A stretch of 64,000 nt of DNA from Dehalococcoidia bacterium (GTDB lineage: Bacteria; Chloroflexota; Dehalococcoidia; Lucifugimonadales; UBA3495). This document shows, piece by piece, positions 3,349-63,656 of this stretch. The stretch is from assembly GCA_965203835.1 (NCBI GenBank), contig OZ241919.1:59471-123470 (forward strand). Direction: 5' to 3'. The notes under the pieces are model-generated. The model searched no databases. It was not told the DNA's origin and saw only the letters and a program-made list of their open reading frames with translations. The position numbers were made by a program, and so were the translations under genes. Numbering within the stretch: position 1 is the stretch's first letter; every line of letters starts with the position of its first letter.

Positions 3349-3915
3349 TTGGTTATTGCGATTACAACCATCTTAGATTCTTTAGTCCCCTTGATAGATG
3401 CCTTAGCATGGCCTCTGGTGGCAATAGCGGTGGCGCTAATATTCCGAAAACCTCTTGCCGCTCTGATTCCTCTAATAGAGAGGATCAAGTTCCCAGGAGG
3501 GGAGGTCAATTTAAGGGAGCGGTTAGAGGAGACCAGATCCCAAGCAGAACGTTCATTGCCTCTTCGTGATCCTCCGCCGGTTGACGAACGTATCCAGGAC
3601 GTCGCCGACACTTACCCTCGTGGTGCTGTGATTGAATCTTGGCTTCTCATTGAGACAGAGTTGAACGATTTGGCAGAAGGTTTAGATGTTCCCATATCCC
3701 CATCCCAGAGGAGATCAGCTAGACGGGTGGCGCAAGCATTAGCAAGGGCAGGTGTATTGGACGACTCGTTAGCAGGGATAGTTAACGACCTACATACCAT
3801 CAGAAACAGCGTAGTACATTCAATTAACACCTCACCTAGCAGGTATGAGGCTCGGGATTATGCTACAACGGCAGCTCGGGTTGTGGCTGCCATTCGAGAA
3901 ACCCGCGAGAGATAA
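3349..3915 (+). CDS. membrane-anchored HEPN-like (DUF4145-like) protein
   Basis: 188 aa. N-terminal hydrophobic helices (VIAITTILDSLVPLIDALAWPLVAIAVALIF). C-terminal helical domain ends in LHTIRNSVVH, an Rx4H HEPN-type motif as in DUF4145. TTG start as called by the ORF track. Confidence 0.45.
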   Translation: MVIAITTILDSLVPLIDALAWPLVAIAVALIFRKPLAALIPLIERIKFPGGEVNLRERLEETRSQAERSLPLRDPPPVDERIQDVADTYPRGAVIESWLLIETELNDLAEGLDVPISPSQRRSARRVAQALARAGVLDDSLAGIVNDLHTIRNSVVHSINTSPSRYEARDYATTAARVVAAIRETRER

Positions 3916-16878: not shown

Positions 16879-17895
16879 TCAAGGGTATGGAATAACGAAT
16901 GTAGTCACTTCTTCTGCGACGGCTTGTGCTGATTGCGCATCGCTCAGGACTGCGGTGATGACGACCGGCATGACCGTGCCCCCGGTGGCGGCGCGCAATA
17001 TTCCGGCGCGGCGCTTGGCCCGGTTCACGTCATCTTCGTCGGCGGTAAGCGACACTTCCACGACCGAGTGGCGATTGCTATCGTCTGAGATGATGAGGTC
17101 AGACTCGTACAGGTCTGAGGACTGCTCCCGAGAGATGGCGCCATTGCCAATAGCTTGGGCAATAGCGCTGTTCAGTTGGGGCGCGATGGTCCCGTCCTGG
17201 GTCAGCGCCAGATAGGGATTCTCTATGCCGAGTATATCCCTGGCGCGGACCAAGGCTCTAGTCCTGACTCTTCGCTCGTAGTCGCTGCCCTCAAAATTGC
17301 TGAATCGCCCCTCTAGCCGACCCATCCTGGTCTCCATCCGTTGCATCTGGGTTGCCAATTGTCCTACCACGGTTTCCAGGCTCTCCGTCCGGGTTAACAA
17401 TTGTCCTACCACGGTTTCCAGGCTCTCCGTCCGGGTTAACAATTGTCCTACCACGGTTTCCAGGTTTCCCGTCCTGGTTGCCAGTTGTCCTACCACGGTT
17501 TCCAGGTTTCCCGTCCTGGTTGCCAGTTGTCCTACCACGGTTTCCAGGTTTCCCGTCCGGGTTGCCAGTTGTCCTACCACGGTTTCCAGGCTCTCCGTCC
17601 GGGTTGCCAGTTGTCCTACCACGGTTTCCAGGCTCTCCGTCCGGGTTGCCAGTTGTCCTACCACGGTTTCCAGGTTTCCCGTTCTGGTTGCCAATTGCCC
17701 TACCACGGTTTCCAGTCGCCCCAACCGTTCATTGGTTATCCGATTACTTTCCTGTGTCAGTTGGACGAACTCTGCGAACCGGGCAGGCAGGTTCAACAGT
17801 TCTTCGCTCAGCAATAAGCTCCGAATCGTGTCGGCCCATTCGGGCTGTTCTTTCAGGATGCGGGCCAAATCCGCTATGTCGTTGATGGATGTCAC
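16879..17895 (-). CDS. coiled-coil repeat protein with PD-(D/E)XK-like C-terminal domain (uncharacterised family)
   Basis: 338 aa, GTG start. N-terminus MTSINDIADLARILKEQPEWADTIRSLLLSEELLNLP, then nine copies of the 14-aa unit LETVVGQLATRT(GN/ES), then a C-terminus ...ESDLIISDD...VVEVSLTADEDDVNRAKRRAGIL. A paralogue lies at 62622. Confidence 0.7.
   Translation of the reverse strand: MTSINDIADLARILKEQPEWADTIRSLLLSEELLNLPARFAEFVQLTQESNRITNERLGRLETVVGQLATRTGNLETVVGQLATRTESLETVVGQLATRTESLETVVGQLATRTGNLETVVGQLATRTGNLETVVGQLATRTGNLETVVGQLLTRTESLETVVGQLLTRTESLETVVGQLATQMQRMETRMGRLEGRFSNFEGSDYERRVRTRALVRARDILGIENPYLALTQDGTIAPQLNSAIAQAIGNGAISREQSSDLYESDLIISDDSNRHSVVEVSLTADEDDVNRAKRRAGILRAATGGTVMPVVITAVLSDAQSAQAVAEEVTTFVIPYP
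17351..17728 (-). repeat. nine tandem in-frame 42-bp repeats (378 bp)
   Basis: Direct reading: GTTGCCA(A/G)TTGTCCTACCACGGTTTCCAGG(CTCTCC/TTTCCC)GTCC(G/T)G is repeated head-to-tail. All three plus-strand frames give periodic shadow ORFs in the track. Confidence 0.9.
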
Positions 17896-17964
17896 GGTTA
17901 CTATTGTACTCTCTTAAAAATTGCTTCTGCTCTATGTCAGTCCCTTCGGTAACGGTAGCCGGGG

Positions 17965-58572: not shown

Positions 58573-59343
58573 GTGGAAAGAGTCTTGCCCACCGCTATGG
58601 TTATGGGTCTTATTGCTGGCCTGCTCGTAGCCGGGTACATGAATATTTTCAATGTGCCCGTCATGGAGTGGGCCATTGACCTTGAGGGCAAAGCGGCCTT
58701 GGCCGAGCCCGCAGGCGATGAACAGGAACTGCCGCTCTCATGGGCTACCAGCCTTGGCGCGCAACGGGTGGGGATGACCTTGGGGCTGGCGGTGGTAGGC
58801 GTGCTTTGCGGCGCGGTATTCTCCGGGTTGTACTACCTTACCCGCCGGGCAACTCCGGGCTGGAGTCCTTGGGCATGGGCCGTGATTGCGGGGTTGCTGG
58901 GGTTCTGGTCGGTGTCCATGTTCACCCAGCTCAAATTCCCCCTCAATCCTCCCGGCGTAGGCGATGAAGGAACATTGCTGGCCCGCCAAGGGTTGCAATT
59001 CCTGGTAATCGCCGTCTCCGCGGTCTCAGCCGCGGCGGTCCTTTACGCTGTGGGCGTTGTGAACCGCACCTCGTCCGGCTCCGACCGTTGGTTGCGCTAT
59101 GCCAGCATCGGTCTGGCTTATGCGGTGGTCATGTTGTTGTTGGGTTTCGCGGTGCCCAACGTGCGCGACGCCGCCCCCGACTGGCTGCCCCCGGCGTTAG
59201 TCATCATGTTCCGCACCTTCACCGCCGTCGGCCACTTCCTCTTGTGGATGGGCATATCCTTCGGCACGGTTGGATACCTGCTGTACCGGCAGAAAGGAAT
59301 CCATGCTTACCGGCAATCCTCGAATACCGGCGTCAGAGTATAG
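58573..59343 (+). CDS. cbtA: cobalt transporter subunit CbtA
   Basis: 256 aa, polytopic. LKFPLNPPGVGDEG loop typical of CbtA. GTG start after GGGAGGG. Confidence 0.75.
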   Translation: MERVLPTAMVMGLIAGLLVAGYMNIFNVPVMEWAIDLEGKAALAEPAGDEQELPLSWATSLGAQRVGMTLGLAVVGVLCGAVFSGLYYLTRRATPGWSPWAWAVIAGLLGFWSVSMFTQLKFPLNPPGVGDEGTLLARQGLQFLVIAVSAVSAAAVLYAVGVVNRTSSGSDRWLRYASIGLAYAVVMLLLGFAVPNVRDAAPDWLPPALVIMFRTFTAVGHFLLWMGISFGTVGYLLYRQKGIHAYRQSSNTGVRV

Positions 59344-59377
59344 CTGCTTCTGCACGACAATAAAGCCTCTTGCAAGA

Positions 59378-59409
59378 GGGCGGTACTGTCTGGCGCCGCC
59401 CTTTCTTTT
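59378..59409 (+). terminator. putative intrinsic terminator after cbtA
   Basis: GGGCGG / CCGCCC stem (59378-59383 / 59396-59401), 12-nt loop, then TTTCTTTT. Confidence 0.5.
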
Positions 59410-59488
59410 CGTCAGACTCTCGTTACGGCGGAACAACGAACGGTGACCTGCAGGGGGTCTGTGGTAAACTCCACGCTGCCAAAAGATT

Positions 59489-61600
59489 ATGCCGGGAGCC
59501 TTGATTTTGCAGGGTGAAAGACCTGAACCTCGTTTCCCTTTTACCGCCATCGTGGGGCAGACTTCCATGAAGCGTGCCCTACTGCTCAACGCTATTAACA
59601 CCAAGATTGGCGGTGTCCTCATTCGCGGCAAAAAGGGCACCGCCAAGTCCACCGCGGTGCGTTCCCTCGCCGCCTTGCTGCCGGAAGTATCGGTGCTGCG
59701 CGGCTGCCCTTACAGTTGTTCGCCCGACATGCTTCAAGGACTGTGCCAGCTTTGCGAGGGCGGCAGGGTGGAGGCGGACGAGGTCAACCGGCAGGTACGC
59801 ATCGTGGACCTGCCAGTGGGGGCCACCGAGGACCGGCTGGTCGGTTCCCTGGACATCGAGCAAGCCATCAAGACCGGTTCCCGCAGCTTTGAGCCGGGCC
59901 TCATCGCCACCACCCACCGGGGCATCCTGTACGTGGACGAAGTCAACCTTCTCAATGACCATTTGGTTGACGTGTTGCTTGACGCCGCAGCCATGGGCCG
60001 CAACTACGTGGAGCGCGAGGGCATATCCGTCAGCCATGCCGCCGACTTCATCCTCGTTGGCACCATGAACCCGGAGGAAGGGGACCTGCGCCCCCAGCTT
60101 CTCGACCGCTTCGGCTTGGCGGTTGAGGTGGACAGCGCCTTCACCCGCGAAGAACGCCGCCAAGTCGTGCAGCGTCGCATAGCCTACGAGGCCGACCCTT
60201 ACGGCTTTATGGATGAATGGCAAGCGGCCGAAGAGGAAGAACGGGAACACGTCCTCGCCAGCCGCAAGCTCCTTCCCCAAGTCCAGGTGGGCGACGACAT
60301 CCTGGAACTGATTACCGACGTATGCACCGAGTACCAGGTTGACGGTCTCAGGGCCGACATCGTCATGTACAAGACGGCCAGCACCATCGCCGCCTATGAA
60401 GGCCGGACAGAGGTTTCAGCAGAGGATGTGAGGGAAGCAGCCCAGATGGCGCTACTCCACCGCCAGAGACGGCAGCCCTTCCAGCAACCCCACTTGGCCA
60501 CTGAACAACTCGACCAGATGATCGACGAGTTCCAGAACCAACCCCGTGACCGCGAACCCTCAGACCCCGGCTCGGACTCCAGCCCAGACCAGGAAGAGAG
60601 CGACCCTGACCCGTCGGACCAGGAACAGCCCCAACAGAACGCCCAACCCCAGGACCAGGACTTCGAGGTCGGCAATCCCTTCTCAGTACGGTCATTGCAA
60701 CTGAAGCCACCGGACCACCGCGCCAGAAGGACGGGAGGCCGAAGGGCCAAAACGGTCAGCGGCTCTCCCACCGGTCACTACGTCGGCGCACAGCCTCCCA
60801 AAGACAACGTTACGGACCTCGCGTTGGACGCCACCCTCAGGGCCGCCGCCCCGCATCAGCGGGAGCGCCTTGCATCCGCGGGACCTGCGAACAACGTACT
60901 TATAGTTGAACCATGGGACATCCGCGAGAAAGTAAGGGAAACCAAGACAGGCAGTCTTATCCTCTTCGTCGTGGATGCCAGTGGTTCTATGGGTGCGCAA
61001 CGACGGATGGTGGCCGTGAAAGGGGCCGTACTCTCCCTACTCCTCGATGCCTACCAGAGACGAGACCGGGTTGGGCTCATCTCCTTCCGCGGCGCCCACG
61101 CCGACCTGTTGCTGCCCCCTACAAGCAGTGTGGACTTGGCCGAACTCCACCTGCGCGAGATGCCTACCGGCGGGCGCACACCCTTGAGCCGTGGCCTGTA
61201 CATGGCCTTGGACGTGATTGAAAACGAAAAGATGAAGAACCACGATGTGCTGCCGCTGCTGGTGCTTCTCTCTGATGGCCGGGCCAATGTCGCTATAGGC
61301 GCTTCCGGTCCCGGTAATCCCGCAGGTGACAGTCTGCCCGTTGCCGAGGCCAAGGCCGTTGGAGCGTTGGTGAAGCAACAACACATAAATTCTGTGGTGG
61401 TGGACACAGAGGCCGACTTCATCCGGCTGGGTATGGCAAGACACATCGCCGAAGCTATGGGCGCCCATTACCTGAAACTGGAAGACCTGCACGCCGACAG
61501 TTTGGCCGACGCCGTGCGGCTCGAGTTGCCAGCTCCCGACTCTCCGCCGCTTACCCAGCAGGAAATCCAGGGGCTTCTCGACCGGTTGGCCTTGTACTGA
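59489..61600 (+). CDS. chelatase ATPase/vWA fusion (complete ChlI-like AAA+ module, linker, ChlD-like vWA domain)
   Basis: 703 aa. FPFTAIVGQ..., Walker A GKKGTAKST, Walker B ILYVDEVNLL, GTMNPEEGDLRPQLLDRF. A P/Q/D/E-rich linker is followed by a vWA domain with the MIDAS motif VVDASGSMG. Confidence 0.8.
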   Translation: MPGALILQGERPEPRFPFTAIVGQTSMKRALLLNAINTKIGGVLIRGKKGTAKSTAVRSLAALLPEVSVLRGCPYSCSPDMLQGLCQLCEGGRVEADEVNRQVRIVDLPVGATEDRLVGSLDIEQAIKTGSRSFEPGLIATTHRGILYVDEVNLLNDHLVDVLLDAAAMGRNYVEREGISVSHAADFILVGTMNPEEGDLRPQLLDRFGLAVEVDSAFTREERRQVVQRRIAYEADPYGFMDEWQAAEEEEREHVLASRKLLPQVQVGDDILELITDVCTEYQVDGLRADIVMYKTASTIAAYEGRTEVSAEDVREAAQMALLHRQRRQPFQQPHLATEQLDQMIDEFQNQPRDREPSDPGSDSSPDQEESDPDPSDQEQPQQNAQPQDQDFEVGNPFSVRSLQLKPPDHRARRTGGRRAKTVSGSPTGHYVGAQPPKDNVTDLALDATLRAAAPHQRERLASAGPANNVLIVEPWDIREKVRETKTGSLILFVVDASGSMGAQRRMVAVKGAVLSLLLDAYQRRDRVGLISFRGAHADLLLPPTSSVDLAELHLREMPTGGRTPLSRGLYMALDVIENEKMKNHDVLPLLVLLSDGRANVAIGASGPGNPAGDSLPVAEAKAVGALVKQQHINSVVVDTEADFIRLGMARHIAEAMGAHYLKLEDLHADSLADAVRLELPAPDSPPLTQQEIQGLLDRLALY

Positions 61601-61652
61601 CGTCGGATGGTCGGTTGACCGGAGACCTCCCTCACAGTTAAAGGAACTTCAA

Positions 61653-62480
61653 ATGTCGTTCAGCAAGCGAAACATAGCCATTATCGCCGTGGTAGTCCTG
61701 ATTCCCGTGCTGGTGGTCGGGTGGTGGCTTCTGTCACCCCTGTTCATAAGCAAGACCGTAGATGAGGAATTCCCCTTTTCAGCGTCGGCGGTAGTCCCTG
61801 AAAACATGGAACGTAAGGACGTGGAAATGGTCATGTCCCGCATGGCCGAGATGGGGGAACAGGTAGACGAACCCATGATGAAAATGGAGGATATGAGCTC
61901 GGGCGCTGGTGAAATGATGGACAGCCCGATGATGGACGCTGTCGCTGACACCGCTGCCGCCGGTGCCGCTCAAGACCTGTCCGAGGATATGGCGCCGTAC
62001 ATGCCCCAAGGTATGCCGGCCACTACCGAGCAGGTAATGGTCCAGGTCATGGCTGACAGGATCAAGGAGAACTTGGAAGAGGCCATGACCGAGGCGATGG
62101 CCCAGCCGCCGGCAGACCCTCCGGCGCCGGTTGGCCTGAAGCAGGGTGAATTTACCGACGCCGACCGTTTCCACCAGGGCAGCGGCCAAGCCACCATATA
62201 CCGGCTTCCCGACGGCTCTCACGTACTCAGATTGGAGAACTTGGACGTCACCAACGGACCGGACTTGCGCGTCATTCTTTCACCCAGCCCAAATCCCGAA
62301 AGTAGCGCGGACGTCAAGGCTCAAGGCTACGTCGAACTGGACAAGCTCAAGGGGAACAGGGGCAACCAGAACTACCCTATTCCAGCGGGATTCGACGTAG
62401 GGCCAATCCAGAGCGTCGTCATCTACTGCAAGCCCTTCAAGGTGATTTTCAGCATAGCGTCCCTCCAGCAAGCGGGATAG
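61653..62480 (+). CDS. membrane-anchored Met-rich protein with C-terminal DM13 domain
   Basis: N-terminal TM helix (IAIIAVVVLIPVLVVGWWLL). Central region has dense Met clusters (MERKDVEMVMSRMAEMGEQVDEPMMKMEDMSSGAGEMMDSPMMD...). C-terminus GEFTDADRFHQGSGQATIYRLPDGSHVLRLENLDVTNGPDLRVIL is DM13-like. Confidence 0.65.
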   Translation: MSFSKRNIAIIAVVVLIPVLVVGWWLLSPLFISKTVDEEFPFSASAVVPENMERKDVEMVMSRMAEMGEQVDEPMMKMEDMSSGAGEMMDSPMMDAVADTAAAGAAQDLSEDMAPYMPQGMPATTEQVMVQVMADRIKENLEEAMTEAMAQPPADPPAPVGLKQGEFTDADRFHQGSGQATIYRLPDGSHVLRLENLDVTNGPDLRVILSPSPNPESSADVKAQGYVELDKLKGNRGNQNYPIPAGFDVGPIQSVVIYCKPFKVIFSIASLQQAG

Positions 62481-62621: not shown

Positions 62622-63656
62622 ATGACCACCATCAACACAATTGAAGACTTAGTCCGGCTACTGGACGAGAAACCCGAGTGGGCCGAGGCGCTACGTTCCC
62701 GGTTGCTGACTCGCGAACTGATCGAACTGCCCGGCAAGTTTGAAACCTTCAGGGCGGAAATGACCCAAGCCATGTCTGACTTGGCCCGTGTCCTGACGGC
62801 AACTAATGAACGGCTTGACCAAGCTGAAGAGGACCGGCGGGACCTGCGACAGACCGTTATAGACCTGGCCCAGACCGTCAAGGGCTTGGCTGATGCCCAA
62901 GTGGAAACAAACCGGCGGCTTGACCAAGCTGAAGAGGACCGGCGAGACCTGCGCCAGGTCGTGCGGGGCTTGGCTGATGCCCAAGTAGAAACAAATCGGC
63001 GGCTTGACCAAGCTGAAGAGGACCGGCGAGACCTGCGCCAGGTCGTGCGGGGCTTGGCTGATGCCCAAGTGGAAACAAACCGGCGGCTTGACAGAGTAGA
63101 AGGTAACGTTCAGGGGCTTAGGTCCGAGTTAAACGGGCTTCAATCTGAGGTCAATGGGCTTAGGTCCGAGTTCAGTGGGCTTCAATCTGAGGTCAATGGG
63201 CTTAGGTCCGAGTTCAATGGGCTTCGTGACGATTTCGGTCCGGTAAAGGCTGCTCATGTTCGGAACGCCGCGCTACGAGAAGTCGCCGACATTGTCAGGT
63301 CGATCGGGTGCACCTTGGTTAGGGTGCTTGGACCGGAGGAAGTTTATGACTTGCATCGAGACAAGGACACCAGCGGTATTTCCAGCGATCAATTGAAGAG
63401 CTTCAGGTATGGCGACCTTATCATAGAAGCAACGGACATCAACGGCTCCGCCTGCTACCTCGCCGTAGAGGTGTCTTACACCGTCGACAAGAGAGACACA
63501 TCCAGGTCGGTCCGCAATGCCGCGTTCTTGACCAAATTCACCGGCAGGCCGGCTTTTGCCGGAGTCGCAGGCGTGCGTTTCGACGACGAGATCGCGTCCA
63601 GCGGTGATGGCGTTTTCCTGTACCAAGTGTATTCAAGGAACTTGGAAGTAGACTAG
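62622..63656 (+). CDS. coiled-coil repeat protein, paralogue of 16879..17895
   Basis: 344 aa. N-terminus MTTINTIEDLVRLLDEKPEWAEALRSRLLTRELIELP. Internal 28-aa and 7-aa repeats. C-terminus ...YGDLIIEATD...YLAVEVSYTVDKRDTSRSVRNAAFL aligns with the other copy. Confidence 0.7.
   Translation: MTTINTIEDLVRLLDEKPEWAEALRSRLLTRELIELPGKFETFRAEMTQAMSDLARVLTATNERLDQAEEDRRDLRQTVIDLAQTVKGLADAQVETNRRLDQAEEDRRDLRQVVRGLADAQVETNRRLDQAEEDRRDLRQVVRGLADAQVETNRRLDRVEGNVQGLRSELNGLQSEVNGLRSEFSGLQSEVNGLRSEFNGLRDDFGPVKAAHVRNAALREVADIVRSIGCTLVRVLGPEEVYDLHRDKDTSGISSDQLKSFRYGDLIIEATDINGSACYLAVEVSYTVDKRDTSRSVRNAAFLTKFTGRPAFAGVAGVRFDDEIASSGDGVFLYQVYSRNLEVD
62808..63092 (+). repeat. in-frame tandem repeats: one 105-bp unit, two 84-bp units and a partial unit
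   Basis: CGGCGGCTTGACCAAGCTGAAGAGGACCGGCG recurs at 62913 and 62997 (84-bp period). A 105-bp variant starts near 62808, and a truncated copy lies at 63079-63092. The repeats encode RRLDQAEEDRRDLRQVVRGLADAQVETN. Confidence 0.9.
63114..63239 (+). repeat. six in-frame 21-bp (heptad) repeats
   Basis: GGGCTT(AGG/CAA)TC(C/T)GAG(TTx/GTC)AAx is repeated six times and encodes GLRSELN GLQSEVN GLRSEFS GLQSEVN GLRSEFN GLRDDFG. Confidence 0.9.

Follow-up and report, generated by a model that had tools for sequence, protein, structure and literature searches.

Heptad-stepped length variation in the repeat-built stalks of a putative nuclease-fold protein family from Dehalococcoidia and other bacteria

Two paralogous genes with repeat-built middle regions

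We analyzed a stretch of 64,000 nucleotides (hereafter, the window) from a Dehalococcoidia bacterium (Chloroflexota; GenBank assembly GCA_965203835.1, contig OZ241919.1, positions 59,471 to 123,470), which holds near its end an open reading frame (ORF), termed ORF A, whose middle is built from tandem DNA repeats. Its product reads as an N-terminal cap, a predicted coiled-coil stalk and a C-terminal domain (C-domain) with a predicted PD-(D/E)XK fold, and a paralogue with a different stalk, ORF B, lies on the opposite strand (Table 1). A first-pass annotation had described the repeat-built region of ORF A at 62808–63239, and both the description and the coordinates were borne out by Tandem Repeats Finder (TRF) and by in-frame reading. 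A protein identical to the ORF A product (P0001) is encoded on a 4.6-Mb NCBI contig.

Table 1. Coordinates of the two genes and their parts in the window (aa, amino acids; AF2, AlphaFold2)
Feature	Position	Strand	Description	Basis
ORF A	62622..63656	+	344 aa; N-terminal cap, coiled-coil stalk and PD-(D/E)XK-fold domain	ORF list, AF2
N-terminal cap	62622..62735	+	aa 1-38, predicted as three short helices	alignment, hhalign
Stalk	62727..63278	+	aa 36-219, predicted as one continuous alpha-helix of ~27 nm running into the first C-domain core helix	AF2
105-bp unit	62808..62912	+	35-aa unit ERLDQAEEDRRDLRQTVIDLAQTVKGLADAQVETN, the 28-aa unit with an extra heptad TVIDLAQ	in-frame reading
Two 84-bp units	62913..62996 and 62997..63080	+	28 aa each	TRF, pairwise DNA comparison
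Junction	63081..63113	+	RRLD (start of a further unit) and RVEGNVQ, 11 aa, register kept	
Five heptads	63114..63218	+	GLRSELN, GLQSEVN, GLRSEFS, GLQSEVN, GLRSEFN	TRF, unit DNA
Junction heptad	63219..63239	+	GLRDDFG, entry of the stalk into the C-domain	xLRDDxG conserved in family alignments
C-domain	63219..63653	+	aa 200-344, predicted restriction-endonuclease fold	AF2, Foldseek, invariant columns
C-domain invariants	63414-63416, 63468-63470, 63474-63476	+	D265, E283 and S285, respectively; also D292, R295, R298	
ORF B	16879..17895	-	338 aa; paralogue with the same cap, a different stalk and a homologous C-domain	tblastn, hhalign
ORF B array	17349..17722	-	42-bp x8.9, 14-aa unit LETVVGQLATRT(G/E)(N/S)	TRF

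TRF reported an 84-bp unit in 2.5 copies at 62882–63092 (96% matches, score 408). Pairwise comparison of the two complete copies showed that they encode the same protein and differ at 2 nucleotides (nt), both synonymous; identities of 96–98% between the 84-bp repeats are far beyond chance. The 35-aa unit that precedes them is present one to five times in orthologues. For the small array, TRF returned 5.3 copies of a 21-bp unit at 63114–63225, better read as 2.7 copies of a 42-bp unit at 94%. The second and fourth heptad units have the same DNA sequence, and the array has been amplified as a 42-bp double unit in 2.5 copies. All repeat-unit boundaries at 62808–63239 coincide exactly with codon boundaries.

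Three details of the earlier description stand only in part. The 21-bp heptads were amplified in pairs, as just described, rather than singly. Five of the six 21-bp heptad units that had been counted are repeats, whereas the sixth, GLRDDFG, is a junction heptad conserved in all family members. The statement that every unit is a multiple of seven residues does not extend to the truncated copy, which is 11 aa long, but the a/d register runs unbroken across all junctions. The 11-residue sequence RRLDRV(E/D)GNVQ is conserved throughout the close ORF A orthologues, and the GL(R/Q)SE(L/V/F)(N/S) expansion is specific to the ORF A lineage, with a single copy in other orthologues. Antisense or alternative-frame ORFs with repetitive translations also lie over the two arrays (62691–63078, minus strand; 17297–17917, plus strand); long antisense ORFs across both arrays are by-products of the repeats, not genes.

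ORF B was the one other copy that tblastn found in the window, and HMM (hidden Markov model) searches of the six-frame translation revealed no third paralogue there. The two products share 29% identity overall, with the first 40 residues much alike (BLASTP). The caps (62622–62735 and 17782–17895) are 53% identical between the paralogues and have 10 invariant positions, and the nuclease-fold domains are 24% identical. Comparison of the family A and family B profiles with hhalign gave E-values of 2.5e-20 over the N-terminal 38 residues and 2.7e-10 over a 72-column core of the C-domain, confirming that the two window genes are true paralogues with homologous ends. The exact ORF B sequence is absent from the protein collection; the entry closest to it, P0121 (310 aa), shares its ends but is shorter by two 14-aa units. 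Across ORF B orthologues, the 14-aa unit is found in zero to nine copies, and further ORF B orthologues with zero to three units are 212–254 aa long. The proposal that the paralogues independently amplified unrelated heptad modules between conserved end domains was likewise upheld, and the same pattern recurs across families and lineages with different modules.

The cap is thus better conserved between the paralogues than the nuclease-fold domain; it has invariant residues I7, D9, R12, P18, E19, W20, R25, L28, L29 and P37 and no Pfam match. A profile of the cap matched 1,552 clusters at 50% identity, always at residues 1–45. Among the best 145 representatives, the cap is joined only to A-type, B-type or further divergent C-domains with a D...E-x-S pattern, or belongs to fragments and frameshifted calls; other effector domains fused to it were searched for in the same set and none was found. 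Five representatives (P0326, P0354, P0364, P0362 and P0383) turn into arginine/proline-rich nonsense just past the start of the stalk, as if frameshifted within the repeats, and could be sequencing errors or real slippage-induced pseudogenes.

Heptad register and stalk length

The AF2 model of full-length ORF A (predicted local distance difference test, pLDDT, 85.8) places three short helices at residues 7–34, followed by one helix at residues 36–219 with pLDDT values of 86–93 over residues 60–190. A sliding a/d analysis recovered a single heptad frame from about residue 45–55 to residue 207 in both ORFs, across all repeat-type junctions. Core positions are 75% hydrophobic in this frame, compared to 0–25% in the non-core frames, in agreement with the earlier reading of the repeat region as a heptad coiled coil built from tandem repeats. 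With the N-terminal anchor setting the frame, the main residues in family A were V (51%), L (17%) and F (14%) at position a, and L (46%), T (15%) and I (13%) at position d.

The family-wide core pattern of Val at a and Leu at d is presumably dimer-like. Each 28/35-aa unit of ORF A carries R-L-D-Q-A-E in register g-a-b-c-d-e, which we take to fit the R-h-x-x-h-E trimerisation motif, and we infer that the stalk assembles as a parallel homo-oligomer, either dimer or trimer. No signal peptide or membrane segment was found in ORF A or ORF B, for which the first 25 residues have a mean hydropathy of −0.3 within an acidic cap and the sole hydrophobic maxima are the core strands of the C-domain. As judged from these features, the ORF A product is predicted to be a small cytoplasmic protein.

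We then compared stalk lengths among relatives; 629 homologues of ORF A were retrieved at E ≤ 1e-3, and 307 of ORF B. Close ORF A orthologues, with ends that are 92–100% identical, measure 295, 302, 316, 337, 344, 351, 365, 372, 407, 414 and 421 aa, and all 11 of these distinct lengths equal 1 modulo 7 (p about 4e-9). Their stalks hold one to five 35-aa units, 28-aa units, one to eight DLAQTVx heptads and one to six GLRSEFN heptads in differing numbers. Forms of 337, 344, 351 and 372 aa are found at one and the same syntenic position, in which CbtA, Mg-chelatase-like and DM13 genes precede the ORF A orthologue, and class II tRNA synthetase, PemK and BirA genes follow it.

The same rule holds at the level of the families when stalk length is measured between fixed HMM anchors. 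In family A, 103 of 119 proteins fall into one mod-7 class, as do 24 of the 31 distinct lengths (range 27–237 aa). For 76 independent genome loci, the corresponding values are 58/76 and 17/28 (range 20–244 aa), and for family B they are 109 of 121 proteins and 20 of 28 distinct lengths (range 24–164 aa). Calculated on distinct lengths, the mod-7 bias has p-values from 1e-7 to 3e-14. The minor classes in the family A samples are mainly offset by +4 and +1 residues, which correspond to discontinuities known from other coiled coils. The amplified modules differ between lineages and include LETVVGQLATRTGN, LESLEIAQTETNRR, NLETSVG, QHxExLA, DLAQTVx, TNIAGIK and GQARLEA; short forms of 206–257 aa without repeats are also common among ORF A homologues.

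Copy number has changed on a shorter time scale than the sequence of the units. Within one gene, repeat units differ by 0–3 nt per 84–105 nt, whereas units of the window and of other genomes differ by 12–18 nt, with flanking domains 92–94% identical. Two orthologous genes (L001 and L003) have ends that are 98.6–100% identical in DNA, yet encode proteins of 372 and 421 aa. Copy number thus outpaces point substitution, through recent amplification, homogenisation, or both.

Together, these data show that the heptad register, i.e., stalk length modulo 7, is conserved, and that neither the length nor the sequence of the stalk is. The first-pass annotation had suggested selection on stalk length rather than on stalk sequence, with a fixed, non-repetitive linker in orthologues and repeats confined to this assembly as the observation that would speak against it. 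The orthologue survey showed that the linker is not fixed and that the repeats are not unique to this assembly (295–421 aa, with many modules), and the stalk sequence is indeed free to differ. Selection on length, however, found no support because length is the most variable property: orthologues vary widely, and genes with 98.6–100% identical ends are 49 aa apart. What is kept is length modulo 7.

Fold, placement and distribution of the family

Modelled alone, the C-domain was predicted with good confidence (pLDDT 91.3, predicted template modelling score 0.82) and has the order alpha-beta-(alpha-alpha)-beta-beta-alpha-beta, with helices at residues 2–39 and 103–120 and strands at 44–49, 79–84, 90–101 and 124–133 of the model. 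The top PDB matches in Foldseek were NucS/EndoMS (2vld, E 4.7e-4), BsaWI, MspJI, BbvCI, Cap4, Hjc and SgrAI, all of which have the restriction-endonuclease fold, and a viral structure library returned Mrr-like, MmcB-like and PD-(D/E)XK proteins. Of the invariant residues, D265 lies just ahead of the second core strand, E283-x-S285 within the third, and D292, R295 and R298 in the next helix. In this helix, R291, R295 and R298 form a basic patch that is invariant or nearly so. At the position of motif III, both families have an invariant serine instead of lysine. We infer that the C-domain binds or cleaves nucleic acid.

The closest structural matches of the C-domain core are NucS/EndoMS and archaeal Hjc (2vld, 5gke and 2wj0), in which acidic residues occupy the same strand positions (8–16% sequence identity, TM-scores 0.28–0.42). 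These enzymes have a canonical E-x-K and no coiled-coil stalk, whereas the C-domain has E-x-S and sits at the end of a stalk. A search of the PDB with the C-domain sequence profile gave BurrH repeats as the best match (E 0.65), which is not meaningful.

ORF B and family B matched PF07788 (PDDEXK_10, formerly DUF1626) with 12.2–18.8 bits (E 0.0015–0.18) over profile positions 4–70, below the gathering score of 21.2 bits, and the C-domain of ORF A and 21 relatives gave no PF07788 match. Knizewski et al. (2007, PMC1913061) connected the PD-(D/E)XK domain of DUF1626 with DUF91/NucS and with Hjc/Hje; by their account, a coiled coil usually comes before this domain, threonine often stands in for the lysine of motif III, and the helix that follows bears a basic patch. 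We place the window genes as new sister families of the DUF1626-type coiled-coil endonuclease-like proteins, not as formal Pfam members, because of the sub-threshold PF07788 matches and because they follow the pattern of that description with serine for threonine (PMC1913061). On sequence grounds, the family would be a distant, sub-threshold relative of DUF1626/PDDEXK_10.

The likeness extends to several features. Both DUF1626/PDDEXK_10 (PF07788, COG5493) and ORF A/B place a small domain of the restriction-endonuclease fold after an N-terminal coiled coil, both carry a hydroxyl residue in place of the motif III lysine (Thr in DUF1626, Ser in the ORF A/B families) together with the basic patch, both have structural links to NucS/DUF91 and Hjc, and both are found in Chloroflexi among other groups. 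Unlike DUF1626 as described, the ORF A/B families have a conserved 38-aa N-terminal cap; tandem-repeat stalks that are hypervariable in 7-residue steps and a sponge-symbiont distribution are features of the window families that are not reported for DUF1626.

The coiled-coil stalks of this endonuclease family, filed in Pfam as DUF3782, have been mentioned in a study which states that the bacterial members lack nonad beta-layers (Hartmann et al. 2016, PMC4786415), and the pure heptad frame of the window genes agrees with this absence. DUF3782 (PF12644) gave no match at E ≤ 10 to N-terminal fragments or to the short members P0021 and P0137, and was not among the listed matches of the full-length proteins. 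Matches of full-length proteins to SMC, Rad50, JetC, Baculo_PEP_C and others (Pfam, NCBIfam and PADLOC) were set aside as coiled-coil compositional noise far below the cut-offs.

A genome scan identified 313 type-A copies. The best 80 of these 313 all come from metagenome-assembled genomes (MAGs) of Dehalococcoidia and other Chloroflexota, Caldilineaceae, Binatia, Latescibacterota and Spirochaetia, often with three to four copies per genome; the loci nearest to ORF A in synteny are from Dehalococcoidia MAGs. In the JGI metagenome collection, strict peptide patterns found no relatives and an alignment-derived pattern found 11 type-A loci. Seven of the 11 are from the sponge metagenomes LXNJ (Petrosia), LXNI (Sarcotragus) and MKWU (Aplysina), whereas the seawater assembly paired with them contributed none. 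These results suggest that type-A genes are habitat-linked and horizontally shared, and the family appears to be restricted to sponge-associated bacteria of five phyla.

No conserved neighbour (ORFs of at least 80 aa) or small flanking ORF (at least 30 aa) was found across 79 genome loci; the recurrent neighbour clusters proved to be ORFs antisense to the family gene, close relatives with shared synteny, or upstream non-coding DNA that is conserved. Searches of PHROGs, and of phage and plasmid collections by tblastn, returned no homologues, and PADLOC-DB gave only coiled-coil matches (JetC, LmuB, ZorA and DruC), with none outside the coiled coil. The window copies, ORF A and ORF B, sit among housekeeping genes and not in a mobile-element setting.

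Several features of these loci deserve mention in their own right. ORF A is preceded by genes for a CbtA-like membrane protein (58573–59343), a 703-aa fused Mg-chelatase/VWA protein (59489–61600) and a DM13-domain protein (61653–62480). In orthologous loci, CobN precedes this cluster, and the region 58573–62480 looks like a cobalt-chelatase neighbourhood unrelated to the stalk finding. A PemK-family toxin gene with a small ORF lies two genes downstream of the orthologous locus (L001:8723–9494, L081:6432–7146 and L082:6122–6893), a position beyond the end of the window. In two Dehalococcoidia MAGs, a subfamily copy lies inside a 3–5.5 kb segment repeated at 94–96% nucleotide identity (L019:1021–6535; also L013, L016, L021, L026 and L030). 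The segment in L019, together with the DNA directly next to it, encodes a PAPS_reduct protein, two XRE HTH regulators, a Replic_Relax protein and a TraG/TraD/TrwB-like ATPase, and the repeated segment looks like a multi-copy integrated mobilisable element. Finally, ten Latescibacterota copies, paralogous as well as orthologous (L018, L020, L022, L023, L029, L036, L037, L049, L051 and L069) have in common an AT-rich block about 130 bp before the start codon, AAAATTTACAGCCGCTATATTGCCC ... TTGATTTGG ... GATAAAACGGCCATTGAGGAAAAC-GTG, which ends in a GAGG ribosome-binding site (locus coordinates roughly 3600–3790). Rfam searches on three Latescibacterota loci detected tRNAs only and no match to the block, which is probably a shared promoter or 5' untranslated region duplicated along with the gene.

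Explanations for stalk variation and their implications

We consider it probable that the repeat region is the middle of a long helical stalk that joins the cap to the nuclease-fold domain, and that its length drifts in whole heptads while the register is held. The stalk would lengthen or shorten as near-identical DNA units are duplicated in tandem or deleted, most likely through replication slippage or unequal recombination, and only changes of 21n bp would persist, because steps of any other size would disrupt the hydrophobic a/d seam and alter the phase of the C-domain relative to the cap. Length and sequence could then drift quickly under a constant register. Conservation of length modulo 7 is what would be expected if a continuous parallel coiled coil runs its seam into the first helix of the C-domain, and neutral slippage under this register constraint is the simplest reading of the data.

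Several observations weigh against this interpretation or parts of it. The register rule is strong but not absolute, as about 10–24% of the stalks lie outside the main mod-7 class, and the helix is seen in an AF2 monomer model, which draws a long helix regardless. For the C-domain, the Foldseek scores are modest (best E 4.7e-4, TM 0.35–0.46), the ends of ORF A have no significant sequence match in Pfam, NCBIfam or the PDB, and the canonical catalytic lysine is absent, so that the domain may not be an active nuclease. In addition, some length variants on short contigs, e.g., P0006 (1.8-kb contig), could be collapsed assemblies.

This last point bears on the possibility that the repeat numbers arose from mis-assembly, by expansion or collapse. 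Short-read assemblers can collapse tandem repeats of 84–105 bp, and some variants do come from contigs of 1–4 kb. Many others, including those of 337, 362, 365, 372, 414 and 421 aa, lie on contigs of 1.0–5.95 Mb, which argues against an artefact; the window copies carry distinguishing synonymous differences, and no variant loses the reading frame or the heptad phase, which random mis-assembly would not preserve. We give this explanation hardly any weight. An intramolecular antiparallel hairpin of the SMC/Rad50 or seryl-tRNA synthetase arm type, at whose base the cap would lie next to the C-domain, is also very improbable: what hints at it is a weak resemblance to the profiles of SMC, Rad50 and the Seryl_tRNA_N arm, which falls far short of the cut-offs and is generic coiled-coil noise, the AF2 model shows a single straight helix without a turn, a single frame runs from end to end, and one-sided tandem duplications as well as stalks of only 20–34 residues are hard to fit to such an arm.

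If the stalk were instead a molecular ruler, its length would be selected and each lineage would have amplified any available heptad module to reach the required value. The free divergence of stalk sequence between paralogues and lineages under a kept architecture, and the position of the stalk as a physical spacer between two conserved domains, would fit such a role. However, positional orthologues are anywhere between 316 and 421 aa long (down to 295 aa with P0006 included), near-identical genes are 49 aa apart, stalks across the family span ~3–36 nm with no preferred value beyond the mod-7 class, and short non-repetitive forms are common, so that we regard the ruler as improbable. Adaptive hypervariability, in which the repeats form a contingency-type locus and rapid in-register length changes make a nuclease involved in conflict (defence or selfish) vary in reach or spacing within symbiont populations, is somewhat less remote but still unlikely. 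In its favour, copy number evolves more rapidly than point substitutions accumulate, genomes carry several copies, sponge-associated bacteria of five phyla have the family, one subfamily lies inside the multi-copy integrated element with Replic_Relax and the TraG/TraD-like protein, and the fold is typical of restriction and defence nucleases. Set against this are the PADLOC matches, which are only coiled-coil noise, the lack of a conserved neighbour or small partner ORF at the 79 loci and of phage or plasmid homologues, the housekeeping surroundings of the window copies, and the many members without any repeats. Neutral slippage under register constraint accounts for the same data.

The favoured interpretation, drift in length under a constant register, has parallels in other systems. 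Sensor histidine kinase linkers, both natural and engineered, show a heptad dependence of length that includes 7n+1 variants, and their periodicity arises where a continuous parallel coiled coil joins two domains (PMC6798134). The linkers of YF1, LOV and bacteriophytochrome receptors resemble the ORF A/B stalks in their heptad-periodic lengths with minority 7n+1 classes; they are short, lack recent tandem DNA repeats and serve sensor-to-kinase signalling, whereas the ORF A/B stalks vary by up to ~30 heptads. In streptococcal M proteins and the stalks of trimeric autotransporter adhesins, tandem DNA repeats in multiples of the coiled-coil period shift length quickly between strains. Those proteins are secreted, anchored and host-exposed; unlike them, neither ORF A nor ORF B has a signal peptide, an anchor or a membrane segment, and both carry a nuclease-fold domain at the end of the stalk.

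More speculatively, these genes may represent an undescribed sponge-symbiont conflict or defence module that moves between phyla, in which the cap docks on a fixed cellular or invader structure and the slippage-prone, heptad-stepped stalk is a fast-evolving, adjustable ruler that places the nuclease-fold domain. We view this as improbable. If true, there would be population-level diversity in the reach of the nuclease-fold domain, and stalks of the minor 7n+1 and 7n+4 classes could differ in functional state from the rest, as in engineered sensor kinases.

The underlying phenomena, namely the register constraint of coiled coils and the slippage of tandem repeats, are already well understood. 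The family nonetheless offers an unusually clean natural experiment on coiled-coil evolution, with hundreds of homologues whose stalks span ~3–36 nm in almost only whole-heptad steps, and at least seven unrelated repeat modules that were amplified independently. Constraints on register, length and sequence are usually confounded; here they are separable, and only register is held. The analysis further defines a protein family beyond Pfam coverage, extends the poorly understood coiled-coil PD-(D/E)XK proteins (DUF1626/DUF3782), and provides a concrete target for symbiont-specific, horizontally shared functions.

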